Source of the DNA: Eubacteriales bacterium
GTDB lineage: Bacteria; Bacillota; Clostridia; Oscillospirales; CAG-382
Length of the DNA stretch: 64,000 nucleotides
Reading direction: 5' to 3'
Assembly (NCBI GenBank): GCA_041672465.1
Contig: JBAYZO010000005.1
Location: forward strand, 4,686-68,685
Positions 30,215 to 63,286 of this stretch are shown here, in pieces. A program made the translations under genes and the position numbers. Positions within the stretch are counted from its first letter, which is position 1, and each line of letters starts with the position of its first letter. The notes beneath the pieces are model-generated. The model had not been told where the DNA came from. It searched no databases and was given only the letters and a program-made list of their open reading frames with translations.

Positions 30215-30404
30215 GAAACGAATGAAGTCGTGGCTTCGCCACTAATGAAGTTTCGCTTTCAGCGAAATGAAGCGTTTGCTCCGCAAACATGAAGCGAAGC
30301 GCGCTCCTGCCCCTCATGTGCCGTCGAGGCACGCTTCATTTCTTCATTAGCGAAGCGGCTTCATGCGCCGATAGGCGCGCTTCATTGAAAAAAGCGCCAA
30401 AAGG
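30215..30404. repeat. 190-bp ATGAAGC/GCTTCAT module, copy 1
   Basis: Identical to 30494-30683 except for one base (30312 C versus 30591 T). Confidence 0.95.
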
Positions 30405-30493
30405 AAGTTTATTTTGTCAAGCAAAAACAAAAAAGATATGTAAGCAGTTTTATAGAAATGACGCCAATCATTTACTCTCCCGCAATTTCAAAA

Positions 30494-30683
30494 GAAACGA
30501 ATGAAGTCGTGGCTTCGCCACTAATGAAGTTTCGCTTTCAGCGAAATGAAGCGTTTGCTCCGCAAACATGAAGCGAAGCGCGCTCCTGCCTCTCATGTGC
30601 CGTCGAGGCACGCTTCATTTCTTCATTAGCGAAGCGGCTTCATGCGCCGATAGGCGCGCTTCATTGAAAAAAGCGCCAAAAGG
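30494..30683. repeat. 190-bp ATGAAGC/GCTTCAT module, copy 2 (ends 11 bp from the 3' end of tRNA-Val)
   Basis: Direct repeat of 30215-30404 at an offset of 279 bp. Confidence 0.95.
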
Positions 30684-30694
30684 CAGCTTTGTTC

Positions 30695-30770
30695 TGGTGG
30701 GGACTACAGGGCTTGAACCTGTGACCCCCTGCTTGTAAGGCAGGTGCTCTCCCGGCTGAGCTAAACCCCC
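30695..30770 (-). tRNA. tRNA-Val (anticodon UAC) with encoded CCA
   Basis: Cloverleaf folded by hand. Acceptor GGGGGTT/AGTCCCC (2 G-U pairs). D arm GCTC-AGCCGGGA-GAGC. Anticodon arm CCTGC-CTTACAA-GCAGG. T arm ACAGG-TTCAAGC-CCTGT, then ACCA. Confidence 0.9.
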
Positions 30771-32999: not shown

Positions 33000-33070
33000 T
33001 TTATTACACTTCCTTTCTGTTGATACGAAAATTCTTTGATGATTCTGCTTATAAACTACATAAATTTCGA

Positions 33071-33245
33071 GAACCGCAACCTTTTTGATGGTTTCGCTTT
33101 GCAGTTGCTTATTTCGGGAACCGCAACCTTTTTGATGGTCTCGCTTTGCAGCTGCTTATTCCGAGAACCGCAACCTTTTTGATGGTTTCGCTTTGCAACT
33201 GCTTATTCCGGGAACCGCAACCTTTTTTATGGTTTCGGCTTGCCG
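33071..33245. repeat. 47-bp tandem repeat, about 3.7 copies
   Basis: The unit gaaccgcaacctttttgatggtttcgctttgcagttgcttatttcgg starts at 33071, 33118, 33165 and 33212. Confidence 0.9.
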
Positions 33246-33306
33246 AAATTGCGGTTGTTTAAACCGCAAAATAAAAAAGTTGCCATTGAAAGACTTGTCT
33301 TTCAAT
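33233..33306. repeat. Three-hairpin intergenic element, copy A (H1 33233-33248, H2 33249-33269, H3 palindrome 33285-33306)
   Basis: H1 is tttcgg-cttg-ccgaaa. H2 is ttgcggtt-gttta-aaccgcaa. H3 is attgaaagacttgtctttcaat. It matches the reverse complement of 47854-47965. Confidence 0.85.
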
Positions 33307-33340
33307 ATGTTGTTTAAACCGCAAAATCAAAAAGTTGCCC

Positions 33341-33362
33341 ATTGAAAGATTTATCTTTCAAT
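33341..33362. repeat. 22-bp palindrome H3, second copy
   Basis: attgaaagatttatctttcaat with 10-bp perfect arms. It is part of a ~56-bp duplication of 33256-33311. Confidence 0.9.
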
Positions 33363-33372
33363 GATGTTGCCG

Positions 33373-33394
33373 ATTGAAAGATTTATCTTTCAAT
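33373..33394. repeat. 22-bp palindrome H3, third copy
   Basis: attgaaagatttatctttcaat. Confidence 0.9.
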
Positions 33395-37660: not shown

Positions 37661-38083
37661 GTGGGAGTTATGGATAAAAAACCAAACGAATTTATTCGGT
37701 TTATTAAGTTCGGCTTGTTTTCGGCCTCGGCGGGGTTGGTTGAAACAGCCTTGTTTTATCTGTTGGGGCTGTTCCCCGGCATAAATTACTGGCTTTGTTA
37801 TATGCCGGCTCTTATTGTCTCGGTGATTTGGAACTTTACCCTCAACAGGCGGTTTACCTTTAACAGTTCGTCAAACGTACCCCGCGCGATGTTTAAAACT
37901 TTCGCTTTTTACGCCGTGTTTATTCCTGTCTCCACGGTTTTGGGCGAAAAACTTGCCGCGGCGTACAAAGCCTATCCCGCGGCGGACGATATTATCTTCT
38001 TTACCACCCTCATTATAAACTTTGTGTTGGAATTCCTTTATCAAAGGCTTTATGTGTTCAGAGGGCAAACGGATAACAGATAA
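37661..38083 (+). CDS. GtrA-family membrane protein
   Basis: 4 TM helices and the WNFTLNRRFTF motif. Confidence 0.65.
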   Translation: MGVMDKKPNEFIRFIKFGLFSASAGLVETALFYLLGLFPGINYWLCYMPALIVSVIWNFTLNRRFTFNSSSNVPRAMFKTFAFYAVFIPVSTVLGEKLAAAYKAYPAADDIIFFTTLIINFVLEFLYQRLYVFRGQTDNR

Positions 38084-38117
38084 AGATAAAAGATAAGAGA
38101 TAAGAGATAAGAGAAAT
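38079..38117. repeat. Homopurine (GATAAGA)n tract
   Basis: gataacagataaagataaaagataagagataagagataagagaaatgg. It shares AAGATAAGAGATAAGAGA with 50554-50597. Confidence 0.85.
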
Positions 38118-45257: not shown

Positions 45258-47420
45258 ATGACAAACAGATTTACCGAAGAGGCCAAAAAAGTGCTTAACG
45301 ACGCCGTGACGGCGGCGCGCGAATACGGACATACTTTTGTGGGCAGCGAACACCTTTTGCTGGCCATAACCATGACATCGCCGCGCTGTTTTGCCAACTC
45401 GCCCATAACATATGACAGAATAAAGCGCCAGCTCTATGAGCTCGCCGGCACGGGGGCGGATAACTATGTCGGCGGCGAGGACTTAACCCCGAAATGCAAA
45501 AAGATTCTTATCCAAGCCGGAAGGCACGCCAAAGACATGGGGAGCGAGGTGATAGCCATAGCGCATATCCTGATGGCAATTCTAACCGAGGAGTGCGTCG
45601 CCAAACGGATTATCGAGATGGAAGGCGTTTCCGTCTGTGAGATACTCATGTCGCTGGGGAGCGAAAACAAGGAAAACACGGAGGTTGAAATGGACCAAAA
45701 AAGACGGGATAAACAAAGGCCGACGCCTTTTCTTGATAAAAACGGCACAGATCTCACCGCCGTCGCGGAATCGGGAAAAATCGAAAGCATTATCGGCAGG
45801 GAAACTCAGGAAGAAAGAATTATCCGAATCCTCCTGCGAAAAAGCAAAAACAACCCCTGCATTATAGGCGACGCGGGGGTGGGGAAGACAGCCATCGCCG
45901 AGGCGGTGGCAAAGCGGATAGCCGAGGGCAAGGTCCCCGAGGCGCTCAGGGGAAAGCGCCTTATTTCCGTAGATATCCCCGGCGTTGTGGCGGGGACAAA
46001 ATACAGGGGGGAATTTGAGGAAAAGCTGAAAAATATCATCGGGGAGGCAAAAGGCGGCGATATTATTTTATTTGTCGACGAAATGCACACCATTGTGGGG
46101 GCGGGGAGCGCCGAGGGCTCGGTTGACGCCTCAAATATACTGAAACCCCCGCTCGCCAGAGGGGAGATAAGGCTTATCGGCGCGACGACTCCGGGCGAGT
46201 ATAAAAAGATAATTGAAAAAGACCCGGCTCTCGAACGGCGGTTCCAGCCGGTGAAAGTCGACGAGCCGAGCCAGCCGGAATGTATTAAAATGCTTTTAGC
46301 GACAAAAAAGTATTATGAAAAGCATCACGGCATTAAAATCTCAAACGACGCGGTCGAGGAGGCGGTTCGGATATCATCGCGCTTTATAAACGGCAGAAAG
46401 CTCCCCGACAAAGCGGTGGATTTAATCGACGAGGCCGCCGCGGGCGTTGTGATAAACGGCAGGGCGGCGCTGGGAAACAGCGACATTATAGGCATAGCGT
46501 CGGATATGACGGGGATCCCCGCCGCGGTGCTTGCCCGGTTCGGCGAGGGCGACGCGCAAAGGCTTAGGGATTGCCTTTACGACTCGCTTGTCGGGCAGGA
46601 CGCCGCCATTGAAAAAATTACCTCCTGTTACCGGCGGTATATTCTCCGCACAAACGCCGAAACCCGCCCCGCCAGCATGATATTCGCCGGCGAAAAGGGC
46701 TCGGGCAAAACTTTCGCCGCGTCTGTTTTCGCCAAAGCCGCCGGGTTTTCAAGCGTTATTCGGTTTGACATGAGCGAATTTATTGAAAGCCACACGGTTT
46801 CAAAGCTTATCGGCTCCCCGCCCGGCTATTTGGGCTACGGCGAGGAGGCGGCGCTCGCGGAAAAAGTCCGCCGCGCCCCCTATTCAATAATTATTTTTGA
46901 TTCCGCCGAAAAGGCTCACCCCGACGTGCAGTCAATCATCGCCAAAATACTTGAGGACGGCGAGCTCAGCGATTCTTCCGGTTCAAGCGTCAGCTTTGGC
47001 TGCGCGTTTGTAATCGTAATCGTATCCCCGCGCCCGGGGGGGAAAAGGGCGGGGTTTATTAATTACGGCGACGATTGGGTGAGGCCCCCCGACGTTTTTG
47101 AGGGAAAAGCGGATGAGATTATCGCTTTCGCCCCGCTGTCGCAGGGGAGCATTTACAAAATCGCCTCGCTCCGCTGCTTTTCAAGCGCCGCCTCTTATTT
47201 CAACGGCAGGCTTGAGTTTACTAAAGAATTTACCGAATTTTTAAAGGAAAAAACCAAAACCCTCCTCTCCGCCTCGGCGTCGGTTAAATACGCCGACAAG
47301 CTTATGAGCGAGGCTTTTTCGGATTTATCCAAGCCAAGCGAAACAGACGAGATTTTCGTAACGTCGGACGGCGACGAGGTTTTCTTTAAAATCCCCGAAA
47401 AAGCGCTTGACAAGCGGTGA
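45258..47420 (+). CDS. Divergent ClpC/ClpA-like AAA+ chaperone
   Basis: Clp-N repeats (FTEEAKKVL..GHTFVGSEHLLLAI), D1 Walker A GDAGVGKT and Walker B ILFVDEMH, and D2 GEKGSGKT. ATG 45258 follows a GGAGGGG RBS. Confidence 0.8.
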   Translation: MTNRFTEEAKKVLNDAVTAAREYGHTFVGSEHLLLAITMTSPRCFANSPITYDRIKRQLYELAGTGADNYVGGEDLTPKCKKILIQAGRHAKDMGSEVIAIAHILMAILTEECVAKRIIEMEGVSVCEILMSLGSENKENTEVEMDQKRRDKQRPTPFLDKNGTDLTAVAESGKIESIIGRETQEERIIRILLRKSKNNPCIIGDAGVGKTAIAEAVAKRIAEGKVPEALRGKRLISVDIPGVVAGTKYRGEFEEKLKNIIGEAKGGDIILFVDEMHTIVGAGSAEGSVDASNILKPPLARGEIRLIGATTPGEYKKIIEKDPALERRFQPVKVDEPSQPECIKMLLATKKYYEKHHGIKISNDAVEEAVRISSRFINGRKLPDKAVDLIDEAAAGVVINGRAALGNSDIIGIASDMTGIPAAVLARFGEGDAQRLRDCLYDSLVGQDAAIEKITSCYRRYILRTNAETRPASMIFAGEKGSGKTFAASVFAKAAGFSSVIRFDMSEFIESHTVSKLIGSPPGYLGYGEEAALAEKVRRAPYSIIIFDSAEKAHPDVQSIIAKILEDGELSDSSGSSVSFGCAFVIVIVSPRPGGKRAGFINYGDDWVRPPDVFEGKADEIIAFAPLSQGSIYKIASLRCFSSAASYFNGRLEFTKEFTEFLKEKTKTLLSASASVKYADKLMSEAFSDLSKPSETDEIFVTSDGDEVFFKIPEKALDKR

Positions 47421-47448
47421 AAATATATATATAATACCCCTGTAAAGC

Positions 47449-47481
47449 GTTTTGCTTTACAGGATTTTTTTATAAAAGACA
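47449..47481 (+). terminator. Intrinsic terminator after the clpC-like gene
   Basis: cctgtaaagc gtttt gctttacagg followed by ATTTTTTT. Confidence 0.8.
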
Positions 47482-47524: not shown

Positions 47525-47854
47525 ATGGATGAAAAAGCCGCAAGGCGGGGCGAGATAGCGGGACTGTTTGACATTTATTCCCCGCTGCTTTCAGAAAGAC
47601 AGCAGCAGGCGACTGAAATGTATTATATTGACGACCTCTCGCTGTCTGAAATTTCAGAAAACCTTAGCATAACAAGGCAGGGGGCGCGGAGTTTAGTCGC
47701 CCGAGGGGTGGAACTGCTGATGTTTTTTGAAGACAGCCTTGGGTTTTCCCGCAAAGAAAACGAGGCGCGGAGCGCGGCGCAAAAAATAAAAGAATGCGGA
47801 GTCAGCGGAACGGCGCTCGCCGAAGCTGAAAAAATATTAAAATTGTTCGGTTAA
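47525..47854 (+). CDS. ylxM: YlxM/UPF0122 putative DNA-binding protein
   Basis: LFDIYSPLLSERQQQATEMYYIDDLSLSEISENLSITRQGAR, located upstream of ffh. Confidence 0.75.
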   Translation: MDEKAARRGEIAGLFDIYSPLLSERQQQATEMYYIDDLSLSEISENLSITRQGARSLVARGVELLMFFEDSLGFSRKENEARSAAQKIKECGVSGTALAEAEKILKLFG

Positions 47855-47965
47855 TTGAAAGACAAGTCTTTCAATGTTTATCTGCATAAAAAGGAATTTT
47901 AATAAGCAAATTTTTGATTTTGCGGTTTAAACAACCGCAATTTCGACAAGTCGAAACCATCAAAA
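47854..47965. repeat. Three-hairpin intergenic element, copy B, inverted relative to copy A (H3 47854-47875, H2 47920-47940, H1 47941-47956)
   Basis: The reverse complement aligns with 33196-33306. H3 is identical, H2 is identical, and H1 is tttcga-caag-tcgaaa. Confidence 0.85.
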
Positions 47966-48073
47966 ATATTGCGCTCCCTCAATTCGCAAGCAATTAAAAA
48001 TGAATTTTATAACCGATTAAAAGCAAACTAAATATTAAAATTTATATATCGTTTGAAAGGACTATTTATATAA

Positions 48074-49396
48074 ATGTTCCAAAGCCTTGTCGACAAAATG
48101 GCGGAGGCCTTAAAAAAGTTTAAAAACAAGGGCAAGCTCACCGAAAACGACGTCAAAGCGGGGATGAGAGAGATTAAATTAGCCCTGCTCGAGGCCGACG
48201 TCAACTTTAAGGTGGTCAAAGACTTTGTGGCGAAGGTCTCGCTTCGCGCGGTGGGGAAAGAAGTGCTGGAAAGCCTTCTCCCGGCTCAGCAAATCGTTAA
48301 AATAGTCAATGAGGAACTCATAACCCTTATGGGCTCTGACGCGGCAAAGCTTGAGTTTTCGCCAAAACCGCCCACGGTCATACTTCTCTGCGGGCTTCAG
48401 GGCTCGGGGAAAACAACTCACGCGGCAAAGCTTGGCGCGAGACTTAAAAAGTCGGGCAAAAGCCCCCTCCTTGTCGCCTGCGACATCTACCGCCCGGCGG
48501 CGATAAAACAGCTTCAGATAGTGGGGGGTCAGGCCGGCGTGCCGGTGTTTGAAAAGGGCGAATCCCCCCCGGCGCAAATCGCCGCGGAGGCGGTCAAACA
48601 CGCGGTTAAATACGGTAACGACACCGTTATCATAGACACCGCCGGGCGGCTCCACATTGACGAGGCGCTAATGGCGGAACTGAAAGCGATAAAAGAAAAA
48701 GTCAACCCGGCTGAAATCCTCCTTGTCGTGGACGCAATGACGGGGCAGGACGCGGTAAATGTGGCGCGGACGTTTAACGAAAAACTTGAACTGACCGGCG
48801 TTATTTTGTCAAAGCTTGACGGAGACGCCCGGGGCGGCGCCGCGCTGTCGGTGAGATATATCACCGGAAAACCCATTAAATTTATAGGAACGGGCGAAAA
48901 GCTCGACGCTCTCGAGCCGTTTTACCCCGAACGAATGGCGTCGCGGATTCTCGGCATGGGGGATGTGCTGTCGCTAATTGAAAAGGCGGAGCAGGCGTTT
49001 GACGAAAAACAGGCCGCCGAGCTTGAAAAAAAGTTCCGCGAACAGTCTTTTACCCTTGACGACTACCTTGCGCAGTTCAAGCAGCTTAAAAACATGGGGA
49101 ATATGGAATCCCTTTTGGGGATGATGCCGGGGATAAAACCCGCCCAGCTTAAAAACGCCAATATCGACGAAAAAACCCTCGGCCGAGTGGAGGCGATAAT
49201 ATTATCCATGACGATGAAAGAGCGGGTCAGGCCGGAGATTTTAAATTTCTCCCGCAAGAGGCGGATAGCCGCGGGGAGCGGCACCAGCGCCGAGGAAATT
49301 AACCGGCTTTTAAAGCAGTACGAGCAAACAAAAAAACTCATGAAACAGTTTATGGGGAGCGGCAAGAAGAAAAATAAGATGAGACTGCCGTTTTAA
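48074..49396 (+). CDS. ffh: Signal recognition particle protein Ffh
   Basis: GLQGSGKTT, DTAGR, and a Met-rich M domain. Confidence 0.95.
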   Translation: MFQSLVDKMAEALKKFKNKGKLTENDVKAGMREIKLALLEADVNFKVVKDFVAKVSLRAVGKEVLESLLPAQQIVKIVNEELITLMGSDAAKLEFSPKPPTVILLCGLQGSGKTTHAAKLGARLKKSGKSPLLVACDIYRPAAIKQLQIVGGQAGVPVFEKGESPPAQIAAEAVKHAVKYGNDTVIIDTAGRLHIDEALMAELKAIKEKVNPAEILLVVDAMTGQDAVNVARTFNEKLELTGVILSKLDGDARGGAALSVRYITGKPIKFIGTGEKLDALEPFYPERMASRILGMGDVLSLIEKAEQAFDEKQAAELEKKFREQSFTLDDYLAQFKQLKNMGNMESLLGMMPGIKPAQLKNANIDEKTLGRVEAIILSMTMKERVRPEILNFSRKRRIAAGSGTSAEEINRLLKQYEQTKKLMKQFMGSGKKKNKMRLPF

Positions 49397-50010: not shown

Positions 50011-50032
50011 ATTGAAAGACAAGTCTTTCAAT
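50011..50032. repeat. 22-bp palindrome H3, solo copy
   Basis: attgaaagacaagtctttcaat, 2 nt after the KH gene stop and 8 nt before the rimM TTG. Confidence 0.9.
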
Positions 50033-50040
50033 GGCATATT

Positions 50041-50553
50041 TTGGAAAGAAACGGTTTTAAAGTGAAACATTTTATCGAGGCGGGGAGACTTAACTCCCCC
50101 CGCGGAATAAAAGGCGAGATAAGATTCACCTGCTATTGCGACTCGCCGGAATTTCTTCGCGGGGTTAAAACTTTATACCTTGACGAAAAGGGCGAGAAAA
50201 GCCTTGAGGTTGTATCCTACCGCCCGACTATTCCCACCCTTATTTTTAAAGGTTATGAGAGCAGGGAGAACGCTTACCTGCTGGCGGGGAGAACAGTTTA
50301 TTTTAACCGGAATGACGTCGCTCTGCCGGACAGAGCTTTTTACTTCTGCGACCTTATCGGCGAGGACGCATATGACGGGCAAACGGGGAAAAAAATCGGC
50401 GTGGTTAAGGATGTCGAGGAAATCTCCGGGAAGTTTTATTATATTATTACCGGCGAAAAATCCTACCGCGTCCCCGCTGTGGAAGACTTCGTGCCGTTCG
50501 CTTCCCCCGGCGAGGGGGTAAAGGTTAAGGGGATTGAAGAGCTTGAAATATAA
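50041..50553 (+). CDS. rimM: 16S rRNA processing protein RimM
   Basis: GRLNSPRGIKGEIRF plus a C-terminal PRC barrel. The start may be TTG 50041 or GTG 50062. Confidence 0.85.
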   Translation: MERNGFKVKHFIEAGRLNSPRGIKGEIRFTCYCDSPEFLRGVKTLYLDEKGEKSLEVVSYRPTIPTLIFKGYESRENAYLLAGRTVYFNRNDVALPDRAFYFCDLIGEDAYDGQTGKKIGVVKDVEEISGKFYYIITGEKSYRVPAVEDFVPFASPGEGVKVKGIEELEI

Positions 50554-50597
50554 GGAAAGATAAGAGATAAGAGAGAAGAGAGAAGAGAGAAAAGATA
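50554..50597. repeat. Homopurine (GATAAGA/GAGAAGA)n tract
   Basis: ggaaagataagagataagagagaagagagaagagagaaaagat. It shares a 17-mer with 38079-38117. Confidence 0.85.
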
Positions 50598-63051: not shown

Positions 63052-63057
63052 AAAGGC

Positions 63058-63203
63058 GCAGAGTAAAAAAATTTGCGTATGGCGTATGGTTTTATTCAAA
63101 CTGTATTGTAGTGCTCCGCGAACGGGGAGTTGACGCGGGGACGAAGTGAAGCTTACCACAAAAAAATGGTTGCTTCCGCGGTAAATTTTTTGCATCCCGC
63201 TGT
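63058..63203 (+). promoter_or_regulatory. THF (folT-motif)-like riboswitch with an enlarged internal region
   Basis: The 5' side GCAGAGTA-AAAAAAATTT-GCGT and the 3' side CCGCGGT-AAATTTTTT-GCATCCCGCTG parallel the recalled THF aptamer (GGAGAGUAG-AUGAUUC-GCGU ... GCGCGGU-GAAUCAU-UGCAUCCGCUCC). An internal GGGGACGAAG is also present. Confidence 0.55.
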
Positions 63204-63286
63204 AAAAGGCGTGTTGTTTGTCAACACGTCTTATAACGGATATTTGCTCTCTGCACCATCGTAAAAAAACGAAAGGTGTATTTTTT

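Follow-up and report, generated by a model that had tools for sequence, protein, structure and literature searches.

The spacer between ylxM and ffh in a Eubacteriales bacterium probably belongs to a lineage-specific family of modular intergenic repeats

In the 64,000-nucleotide stretch of Eubacteriales DNA analysed here (the window, to which all positions refer), ylxM and ffh are separated by a 219-nt spacer that runs from the TAA stop codon of ylxM (47852-47854) to the ATG of ffh (48074). This spacer is very probably a dispersed mosaic repeat that arrived by insertion and whose stems are under constraint. We further favour, with more reserve, the reading that it represents a family of modular, non-coding small repeats that is specific to the lineage, resembles BOX and BIME elements and would be co-transcribed within operons. 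The family has not been described before; in kind it is unremarkable among the intergenic repeats of bacteria, apart from some odd properties. A preliminary description of this DNA had placed the two genes 220 bp apart, with a palindrome whose first base is also the final base of the ylxM stop codon and two hairpins, H2 and H1, downstream of it; the separation and all of these positions were confirmed, the length being one nucleotide shorter. The spacer and its flanking genes comprise the following features:

47526-47854, + strand: ylxM (UPF0122; Pfam PF04297, E 1.9e-16)
47854-47875, + strand: palindrome P, ATTGAAAGACAAGTCTTTCAAT, with a 9-10 bp stem and a 4-nt loop; its first base is the final A of the ylxM TAA stop codon
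47876-47905, + strand: about 29 additional nt that separate P from the core and are missing from the 33.2 kb copy, where the pairwise alignment has a gap; the letters resemble a decayed P plus linker
47906-47972, − strand: three-way-junction core (covariance-model match 47905-47974, − strand, 93.8 bits)
47906-47918 paired with 47959-47972: outer stem P1, 13 bp, enclosing H1 and H2
47920-47940: H2, TTGCGGTTTAAACAACCGCAA
47941-47956: H1, TTTCGACAAGTCGAAA
47973-48020, − strand: putative decayed partial unit, in which the linker motif GAATTGAGGGAGCGCAA and traces of TTTTAATCGGTT can be read
48055-48061, + strand: Shine-Dalgarno (SD) sequence of ffh, GAAAGGA, 12 nt upstream of the ATG
48074-49396, + strand: ffh, signal recognition particle protein (Pfam SRP54_N, SRP54 and SRP_SPB, covering the N, GTPase and M domains)

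The top database match of ffh bears the name signal recognition particle protein, and ylxM ends in EKILKLFG before its stop codon here and in EKLIN or EKLLN in the relatives L030-L032. The family consensus orientation at this core is the − strand, and on the consensus strand the basic unit consists of a short linker, then the three-way junction of 70 nt, whose outer stem P1 surrounds H1 and H2, and finally a terminal 22-bp hairpin, P. Judged by eye from the alignment of copies, 47973-48020 may be a decayed unit comparable to the 47-bp units found at 33 kb. The other copies in the window are:

33024-33237, + strand: tandem 47-bp partial units (Tandem Repeats Finder, 92% matches)
33215-33284, + strand: partner core (covariance-model match, 92.4 bits, and fold)
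33217-33230 with 33271-33283, 33233-33248 and 33249-33269: P1, H1 and H2 of the partner core
33285-33306, 33341-33362 and 33373-33394, + strand: three copies of P
33309-33340: partial H2/P1 unit between the first two of these P copies
50011-50032, + strand: solo P, 2 nt past the khpA stop codon

The arms 33211-33283 and 47906-47978 form an inverted pair of 73 nt with 88% complementarity, and the two copies lie 14.6 kb apart in opposite orientation. The inverted copy reported earlier is therefore real, but the alignment then given for it (47854-47965 with 33196-33306) overlooked a 29-nt indel: the distance from P to H2 is 44 nt at 47.9 kb versus 15 nt at 33.2 kb. The P at 47854, the copy at 50011 and the reverse complement of 33284-33306 agree with one another at 23/23 nt. 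The 47-bp units, each made of the P1 5' strand, the H1 5' arm and a linker, occur in 3.7 clear copies from 33064, preceded by one decayed copy; tandem periods in the window are 47, 55 and 32 bp, and all units are direct repeats. Matches in the window to the H2 pattern (3 versus 0.05 expected), to P (5 versus 0.04) and to the flank motif (6 versus 0.38) reached counts that no shuffle attained. The three P copies at 33 kb lie near the GH123 promoter, and a predicted −35 hexamer falls on the left half of one of them. The solo P at 50011 is followed by a new SD, GGAAAGA, for rimM, whose start is most likely the GTG at 50063.

Comparison with orthologous junctions identified the spacer as an insertion. 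In three relatives (L030-L032) with the same gene order as here (clp-ylxM-ffh-rpsP-khpA-rimM-trmD) and with Ffh 80-83% identical, only 17, 11 and 12 nt separate ylxM from ffh, so the element at this junction is an insertion, as the preliminary description had proposed, with the filled and empty sites compared being those of species 17-23% diverged at the protein level. One of these three relatives is itself a metagenome-assembled genome (MAG) in which the family occurs elsewhere. The GAAAGGA of ffh shares no homology with the SD found at the empty sites. The solo P between khpA and rimM and the 33-kb array are likewise insertions; the khpA-rimM gap is 2-4 nt in relatives versus 54 nt here, no element was found upstream of the 2-hydroxyacid dehydrogenase gene (2-Hacid_dh) in the relatives L036 and L037, and the ahcY junction measures about 5 nt in L043 versus a full element in L008. 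No consistent target-site duplication was seen at the ylxM-ffh, khpA-rimM or ahcY junction, although a short one could be hidden because the empty-site species are 17-20% diverged. A target duplication of the SD itself was suggested by the flanks of L008 and L025 and was discarded, as the remaining loci do not fit it. Terminal inverted repeats are absent, the ends being a CCTTTC-type half site and a full P that are related as direct repeats, and no transposase or integrase was seen nearby in the fragments of source genomes covered. With no transposase, terminal inverted repeats or target duplication, we infer mobility from the filled and empty sites alone.

Exact H2 matches in 185,579 species genomes were limited to 4 loci, which all belong to a single MAG; metagenomes contributed 14 additional loci, and a covariance model found 24 cores in public contigs, 23 of them distinct. 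The host lineage, a member of the Eubacteriales (Clostridia), is uncultured and comes from metagenomes of landfill and groundwater. At Rfam gathering thresholds the window contained only a tRNA and a THF riboswitch, with no family for the element, and permissive Rfam scans of both loci gave sub-threshold matches only, the best being Spd-sr37 at 23 bits against a gathering score of 45 bits; we treat this match, the only streptococcal one, as chance. Plasmid and phage collections gave no match to the element, and viral contigs gave none to the core and six lone matches to P, none convincing by the covariance model, which look like chance. A hammerhead ribozyme was rejected (RAGATH-1, 16.8 bits against a gathering score of 56.3 bits) because its would-be core (CUGANGA ... 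GAAA ... UH; GAT/ATC etc.) covaries as P1 base pairs, and a CRISPR array was rejected as unique spacers are lacking and each period recurs in its entirety.

Units and partial units also form tandem arrays, with direct repeats of about 110 bp in L017 and L020. Comparison of the window with strain L038, whose flanking protein is 99% identical, showed that the 47-bp units carry two linker types and that L038 has more of these units, another core variant and two rather than three copies of P. Three same-species contigs share an identical 566-bp spacer, array-length variation appearing only in L038. A 74-aa open reading frame inside the L038 array is a spurious gene call, a kind of error that the family generates. 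The unit number of the arrays differs among strains, and the arrays could therefore serve as strain markers.

The core of the element is a three-way junction and not a row of hairpins, because the outer stem P1 encloses H1 and H2, and P is a separable module; the three-hairpin element of the preliminary description thus had its hairpins right and lacked P1. Minimum-energy and centroid folds both yielded the junction (z −3.8 to −4.4), at which few nucleotides remain (GG and A). The compensatory change noted earlier in the H1 stem (tttcgG..Ccgaaa at 33.2 kb, tttcgA..Tcgaaa at 47.9 kb) is present in the sequence, and P1 also shows a compensated change between the two window copies (TTTTTGAT/ATCAAAAA versus TTTTTTAT/ATAAAAAA). 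Selection on structure had been proposed from that one H1 pair, which is weak by itself; across 23 distinct cores, covariation was found in all three core helices, H1, H2 and the outer stem. The flagged apical pair of H1 is C-G in 11 copies, G-C in 10, A-T in one and unpaired in one. In a plain MAFFT alignment, 94.2% of cells were paired (89.5 ± 0.7 when shuffled) and 7 pairs had changed on both sides, values reached in 0/500 shuffles, and in the model-fitted alignment 96.9% of cells held standard pairs, stem changes being mostly compensated, with double changes at 10 pairs and slid controls at or below 55%; these cell counts overstate the number of independent double changes, since compensated variants often circulate between copies as whole units. 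The inner pairs of P1 show 3-4 pair types each, and H2, whose invariance is partly an artefact of the exact-match scans, changes from CG to UA and from GC to AU in copies found without the H2 constraint.

The terminal hairpin varies in the same manner. P has compensated variants (GAAAGA/TCTTTC to GAAAAA/TTTTTC, and TTG../..CAA to CTG../..CAG), gives way in L006, L023 and L024 to palindromes of unrelated sequence that occupy its position, and is extended to about 44 bp in L027. That P varies and yet stays paired, even when replaced, speaks for a hairpin rather than a protein-binding site. P as the operator of a dimeric transcription factor, with the repeats as clusters of binding sites, would explain a perfect 22-bp palindrome and the three copies near the GH123 promoter, one with its left half on the predicted −35 hexamer, but we consider this very improbable, as the halves of P covary in several ways so that pairing and not a recognition sequence is kept, and as P sits on stop codons or within 2 nt of them inside operons.

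Relative to the neighbouring genes, the copies keep a fixed orientation. The 5' side of the consensus strand adjoins the start of an opposite-strand gene in 15/17 loci, and in nine loci a stop codon lies between −3 and +12 nt from the terminal hairpin, as is probably also the case in a tenth, where the contig is cut off. Read on the mRNA strand, the order is the upstream stop codon (0-2 nt before P, or a TAA in the P loop), P, the core, the SD GAAAGG and the start codon. The downstream genes are unrelated and encode, among others, AhcY, HprK, rubrerythrin, MazG, a SerA-like protein, a phage capsid protein and a PfkB kinase. It is therefore hard to credit a dedicated cis-regulatory leader, whether riboswitch or protein-binding 5' untranslated region, that controls ffh: a well-folded, covarying three-way junction upstream of a start codon is what such a leader would look like, but the genes behind the copies have unrelated functions, the units occur in tandem arrays and as partial units, and unit composition differs between strains; the junction nucleotides (GG and A) are too few for a ligand pocket, and there is no Rfam match. 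The leader reading is largely refuted by the empty sites, since the element is missing from the same junction in three relatives and from other orthologous junctions too, and we consider it very improbable.

The strands of the fold are not equivalent. Wobbles comprise 9 G.U versus 1 A.C, and 8 G.A mismatches fall at one pair position, an asymmetry that favours folding of the strand antisense to the genes and is awkward for a function in the sense mRNA. Of the two forms in which structure was earlier proposed to be selected, RNA or cruciform, the cruciform is disfavoured, because it would have both strands folding equally and the G.U-type wobbles lie nearly all on one strand. Transcription of the consensus strand, each unit being a small antisense RNA that pairs with the intercistronic region and the neighbouring SD, would accommodate the wobble and G.A asymmetry as well as a layout resembling a small RNA body followed by a terminal hairpin; the consensus strand is also the more stable one in 21/22 cores, an energy difference that is not independent evidence because the cores share much of their sequence. 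We nevertheless regard an antisense RNA as highly unlikely: there is no promoter-like site upstream of the cores on the consensus strand, the distance from the core to the neighbouring gene start is no more than about 14 nt in short copies, and P has no U tract behind it. No intrinsic terminator was called at 47854-47875 on either strand, P having three G-C pairs and then GTTTATCTGC. One P at 33 kb was flagged as terminator-like only because it is followed, after 5-6 nt, by the T run of P1. The strongest promoter-like candidates are situated beyond the arrays and read through them toward the gene, and within the arrays of L017 and L020 no promoter-like site recurred at the same place in each unit.

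A further regularity is the register between element and gene start. In seven unrelated loci, CCTTTC or CCCTTC is followed by 4 nt and then by GAACCGCAA, the start of the unit; this constant CCTTTC plus 4 nt hints at target specificity and is not required by an account in which selection alone sets orientation. GAAAGG was rejected as an element-specific motif, being a common SD of the genome found before 10/46 genes; ATGGTCAT adjoining GAAAGG is rare in general and recurrent beside the element. The SD module by L008 is 80% identical to that of L016 and about 55% identical to its own empty orthologous junction, and it therefore looks element-borne and not a host target. Orientation linked to replication was also rejected, as the GC skew of the window tracks gene direction and gives no replication signal, and the two window copies are opposite, which points to orientation being set by the adjacent gene and not by replication direction.

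These observations bear on whether the structure is conserved because the element moves as single-stranded DNA, its folded consensus strand being recognised by an HUH-type enzyme (IS200/IS605 TnpA, RAYT) or a recombinase, with orientation arising from a sequence-specific target, the SD complement CCTTTC, and RNA effects as side effects. The one-strand bias of wobbles and G.A mismatches would follow from such movement, as would the U.G intermediates in L025 and L006 where L024 has a compensated U-A, the lack of terminal inverted repeats and target duplications (as in IS200/IS605) and the fixed CCTTTC/CCCTTC junction in seven unrelated loci; moreover, REPs are similar to the subterminal hairpins of IS200/IS605 (PMC3333891). 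Elements of the IS200/IS605 type have strand-specific subterminal hairpins, insert 3' of a short fixed target and take an orientation linked to replication. We still consider movement of this kind unlikely, because no transposase gene was seen in the fragments of source genomes, the conserved GTAG or CGTC tag is absent (compare PMC3733652), the units are direct repeats and not inverted pairs, the opposite window copies follow the adjacent gene and not replication direction, unlike IS608-type elements (PMC6006769), and the L008 SD module seems to belong to the element rather than to a host target.

Among known repeats, BOX of Streptococcus pneumoniae (boxA-boxB(n)-boxC) is like the family in being small, non-coding, intergenic and without a transposase of its own, in having an internal unit of about 45-47 bp that is tandemly repeated in strain-variable number with terminal modules around it, and in its predicted stable RNA structure and frequent co-transcription with neighbours. 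BOX repeats supply the stop codon of 36 genes, are co-transcribed and vary in size by modules (PMC3049150). The family is set apart from BOX by lineage and by architecture, and Rfam gave no streptococcal match beyond the sub-threshold Spd-sr37: it has a three-way-junction core followed by a separate terminal hairpin, and it abuts gene starts in one orientation (15/17 loci), whereas BOX is enriched between convergent genes and has a general strand bias only. REP/BIME elements and REPINs, which are mobilised by RAYT Y1 transposases whose genes are flanked by the same REPs, are likewise short intergenic palindromes in mosaics whose stems are kept paired, but the family has direct tandem units instead of alternating or inverted pairs, and a three-way-junction module. 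REP/BIME elements have reported roles in mRNA stabilisation and attenuation and are thought to be active as folded single strands (PMC3333891, PMC2817692, PMC3116915), and a RAYT-associated REP is an imperfect palindrome of 20-40 nt with a GTAG or CGTC tag at one end (PMC3733652); no such tag is conserved in P, H1, H2 or the flanks, CTAC next to P being restricted to the L015/L017 array lineage. The co-transcribed MITE-like repeats ERIC/IRU and YPAL (enterobacteria) and Correia/NEMIS (Neisseria) insert in transcribed intergenic regions and fold as RNA, with orientation-dependent effects on neighbouring mRNAs and possible co-translation with the upstream gene (PMC2229807). These MITE-like repeats have terminal inverted repeats, TA termini, target duplications and one long end-to-end stem, none of which is found in the family. 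Integron attC sites occupy the gap from a stop codon to the following gene, and the strand that folds is the one antisense to the cassettes. Like the family, attC sites and the palindromes of IS200/IS605 elements have one informative strand and tolerate G.T wobbles and mismatches on that strand only; the family differs from both in having no GTTRRRY core sites, no nearby integrase or transposase, syntenic housekeeping genes and not cassettes at its flanks, and an orientation governed by the adjacent gene and not by replication.

In the modular-repeat reading that we prefer, the element would spread and reshuffle through recombination, slippage or a transposition step requiring one folded DNA strand, and the insertions that survive would be those giving the upstream gene a stop codon and the downstream gene an accessible SD. 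Operon junctions in this lineage are only a few nucleotides long, and we propose that for this reason only insertions supplying both would survive, which would fix the orientation. The promoter of ylxM would drive transcription of the ylxM-ffh element together with the rest of the operon, and an independent ffh SD would take the place of close translational coupling between ylxM and ffh. The hairpins would probably act as RNA punctuation, as 3' protection after ylxM, a structured 5' region before ffh or mild attenuation; any one specific effect at the RNA level is put forward tentatively and is more doubtful than the repeat assignment. Punctuation or attenuation effects have been reported for BIME, ERIC and Correia repeats.

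A more speculative extension, which we judge rather improbable, is a mobile unit that folds as a single strand and homes to translation-initiation regions through the SD complement (CCTTTC plus 4 nt). If this were true, the element would land between stop and start in one orientation with its own stop codon and SD, an intercistronic cassette colonising even essential coupled junctions such as ylxM-ffh and khpA-rimM, and its folded strand would be antisense to the genes, like integron attC sites without an integron.

The modular-repeat family, with covariation in every stem, is a well-supported addition to the few mosaic repeats known in bacteria (REP/BIME, BOX, ERIC, Correia), and to our knowledge no mosaic repeat of this kind was known from this uncultured clostridial lineage. 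It means that tight essential junctions (ylxM-ffh, khpA-rimM and upstream of ahcY) can be opened by a repeat of about 50-220 nt, which appears to be tolerated because a stop codon and an SD come with it. The strand asymmetry of the family and its constant spacing to the start codon could show by what route repeats of this type move.

The genes ylxM and ffh are separated by a spacer of 219 nt, in which, as the preliminary description had reported, a 22-bp palindrome (P) opens the gap and two hairpins, H2 and H1, follow. These and other features referred to in the text are as follows (handles such as L038 denote loci from public genomes and metagenomes; SD, Shine-Dalgarno sequence).

Ending at 47854, ylxM (UPF0122), with a TAA stop
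47854-47875, P, ATTGAAAGACAAGTCTTTCAAT, opening the spacer, its base 1 being the final base of the ylxM TAA stop
47920-47940, H2
47941-47956, H1
48055-48061, SD of ffh, GAAAGGA
48074, start of ffh
63057-63204, THF (tetrahydrofolate) riboswitch aptamer, 47.2 bits, over the Rfam gathering score
L038:2440-3000 (GCA_964401255.1), strain-level variant of the 33 kb array

P, H2 and H1 lie where they had first been placed, but the description of the hairpins lacked a 13-bp outer stem, P1, which surrounds H1 and H2 and thus makes the core a three-way junction, a shape obtained in both minimum-energy and centroid folds (z-scores -3.8 to -4.7). The inverted copy proposed at 33 kb was recovered by a repeat finder (47906-47978 against 33211-33283, 73 nt, 88%), although the alignment of the two copies is interrupted by a 29-nt indel between core and P. 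Within the window P occurs at 33285, 33341, 33373, 47854 and 50011, and the pattern counts stand far above shuffled expectation (H2, 3 vs 0.05; P, 5 vs 0.04; flank motif, 6 vs 0.38).

The proposal that the spacer was widened by insertion was assessed at the ylxM-ffh junctions of relatives, and empty ones were found at loci of Ffh homologues at 80-83% identity, which share the order clp-ylxM-ffh-rpsP-khpA-rimM-trmD, with gaps of only 17, 11 and 12 nt. A covariance-model search of these empty-site loci found no core, the empty sites hold no counterpart of the ffh SD, and one of them (L030) belongs to the same metagenome-assembled genome (MAG) that has the family at other loci; YlxM ends in ...EKILKLFG* in the window vs ...EKLIN* or ...EKLLN* in the relatives. 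A similar difference was seen at khpA-rimM (2-4 nt in relatives vs 54 nt in the window, the rimM start being taken as GTG 50063): the mechanical rimM ORF begins at TTG 50041 (window 50041-50063), and alignment to the relatives, over GTG AAA CGT TAT ATC GAA, indicates that the true start is probably GTG 50063, which is preceded by GGAAAGA. The junction upstream of ahcY holds an element copy in L008 vs ~5 nt in L043, and two relatives likewise lack the 33 kb array ahead of their orthologous 2-hydroxyacid dehydrogenase. Judged by these comparisons, the ylxM-ffh element is an insertion. In the closest relative, the empty spacer (L030:9984-10000, GAGAGGTCATGAGGTCATA) holds GAGGTCAT twice in tandem; at other loci GGTCAT recurs after the SD module of the element and ahead of the start codon, and its presence in L030 may mark a footprint or a target-like sequence. 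Purine-rich heptamer arrays, (GATAAGA)n and (GAGAAGA)n, occupy intergenic spacers at 38072-38114 and 50556-50595, the latter filling the rimM-trmD spacer (3 nt in the relative L031, 46 nt in L030), which is another lineage-specific operon-junction expansion.

When one genome per species was scanned for exact H2, only four loci (L005-L008) were returned, all in the MAG Eubacteriales bacterium STF1_220. Scanning metagenomes without constraining the H2 loop gave 15 stretches, one of them a chance match, and a covariance model trained on 18 copies recovered extra copies within tandem arrays, for a total of 24 cores, 23 of them distinct. Arrays of full ~110-bp units were present in L015/L017, L020/L028 and L022/L026. 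No Rfam family reached threshold, and viral contigs, plasmids and phages yielded 0 matches; the core copy in L007:2340-3313, which lacks P, precedes a phage capsid gene (PF25209) by 67 nt, and the family is therefore present in a prophage-like region too. Three same-species contigs share an identical 566-bp spacer at the 33 kb locus, yet the L038 strain, whose dehydrogenase is 99% identical, has a larger number of 47-bp units, their linkers alternating between two types, two P copies vs three in the window array, and a core with P1 GAT/ATC instead of TAT/ATA and H2 TTGCAGTT..AACTGCAA; a 74-aa gene called within its array (2641-2865) is almost certainly spurious. Just 3' of tRNA-Val(tac) (30695-30770, minus strand), the window also holds a 196-nt direct repeat (30215-30410 and 30494-30689, 98% identical, starts 279 nt apart) made up of short hairpins interspersed first with ATGAAG (~6 times) and further on with CTTCAT (4 times), without an Rfam match; its hairpin TTTCGCTTTCAGCGAAAT resembles the family's H1 variant TTTCGCTTTAGCGAAAT.

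The compensated G-C to A-T change noted in H1 is genuine, and the selection on structure read from it was assessed across the aligned copies. Eleven copies have C-G at that pair, 10 have G-C, one (the window copy) has A-T and one is unpaired. In an unfitted MAFFT alignment, standard pairs filled 94.2% of cells vs 89.5 ± 0.7 in shuffles and 7 pairs had changed on both sides, values reached in 0/500 shuffles; the model-fitted alignment gave 96.9% of cells paired and 10 such pairs, and pairing fell to at most 55% when partners were slid. Because the copies are related and variants travel between them as whole units, independent events are fewer than the cell counts suggest. The inner three pairs of P1 show 3-4 pair types each, and the invariance of H2 in exact-match copies is an ascertainment effect: CG to UA and GC to AU changes occur in model-found copies (L022:6277, L020:14101) and in strain L038. 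P varies by compensated substitutions, is embedded within a ~44 bp palindrome in L027:8800-8845, and is substituted by unrelated palindromes in L006:80-130, L023:1342-1366 and L024:3050-3070 (ATTTAATATTTTTAG..CTAAAAATATTAAAT, ATCCAAAAGATATATCTTTTGGAT and GACTTAAATTTATTTAAGTC), the property retained being a hairpin, not a recognition sequence. Both the observation and its interpretation in the preliminary description are sound.

The non-Watson-Crick cells are strongly one-sided: 9 G.U stand against 1 A.C, a single P1 position holds 8 G.A or A.G, and all of these favour the consensus strand, the family's reference strand, which is antisense to the flanking genes. L015 has additional G.T cases in P, as does L038 in P1, and at the position of a compensated U-A in L024 both L025 and L006 hold a U.G, which looks like a wobble intermediate on the consensus strand. 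Such a pattern would be predicted if propagation included a single-stranded DNA step, or if the consensus strand acted as an antisense RNA, for which, however, scans for promoter-like sites found no promoter; neither a cruciform nor a function in sense RNA would predict it.

Orientation follows the genes. The consensus-strand 5' side adjoins the start of an opposite-strand gene in 15/17 independent loci, giving the mRNA-strand order P, core, SD, start codon, and the downstream genes are unrelated (AhcY, HprK, rubrerythrin, MazG, a SerA-like dehydrogenase, a phage capsid protein, PfkB kinase, NAGPA and M48 peptidase). The window's two copies, 14.6 kb apart, are oppositely oriented, so orientation tracks the gene rather than the chromosome; no replication signal was seen in GC skew. 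For upstream genes that are co-directional, the stop codon is 0-2 nt ahead of the terminal hairpin (the 47.9 kb and 50.0 kb window copies, L005 and L029) or, at the remaining loci, inside the first dozen nt of the element: it is the TAA of the P loop in L008, L022 and L025, whose ORFs therefore end ...ATT GAA AGA TAA, is located in the left arm of the palindrome that replaces P in L024, and lies 12 nt into the element in L007, which is without P. CCTTTC or CCCTTC stands exactly 4 nt ahead of the unit start in seven loci, preceded by ATGACCAT in 6/7, and could be part of the element or target sequence.

Since a perfect TTGACA-17-TATAAT lies upstream of ylxM and the promoter-like site scan found no good promoter within the spacer, ffh is most likely transcribed through the element. 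In the region 47407-47463, this sigma-70-type site (12/12) overlaps the Clp ATPase gene at its end and is directly followed by a terminator-like hairpin with a T run (47439-47463), an arrangement in which the ylxM-ffh promoter is probably set atop the clp terminator. A weak promoter-like site within the element on the ffh strand, TCGACA-16-AATATT (9/12, 47943-47970, plus strand), exists only because of the window-specific H1 A-T pair and a bulged T in P1, other copies having TCGGCA, and the compensated change could also have made an internal ffh promoter. The promoter-like sites that score best at divergent loci are on the far side of the arrays and read through them toward the adjacent gene (window 33426 to 33398, 10/12; L020 13920-13948, 11/12).

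Most simply, the family can be explained as a BOX/BIME/ERIC-type mosaic repeat, dispersed and non-autonomous. Because this lineage has only 2-17 nt at its operon junctions, any insertion into them must replace both the stop codon and the SD. Just one orientation would leave GAAAGG free ahead of the start codon, the other being unsuitable because the SD-like sequence would be locked inside P, and selection for a free SD may account for the orientation bias. An SD carried by the element is favoured, as the gene-proximal module of L008 (AGAAAGGAATGGTAAT...) is closer to that of L016, adjoining an unrelated gene (80% identical), than to its own empty orthologous junction (~55%). By analogy, the hairpins might in the mRNA protect the 3' end of ylxM, provide a structured 5' region for ffh, or cause mild attenuation. 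BOX elements are likewise modular, vary in size from strain to strain, are co-transcribed and give the stop codon of 36 genes (PMC3049150), and folding as RNA is likewise described for ERIC, YPAL and Correia repeats, whose effect on neighbouring mRNAs depends on their orientation (PMC2229807). The family behaves like MITEs and REPs, yet fails their tested defining features, since no terminal inverted repeats, consistent target duplication or conserved GTAG or CGTC tag were seen in it. Collectively, the family is new but of a known element kind, and the parts deserving follow-up are its strand asymmetry and its fixed register to start codons.
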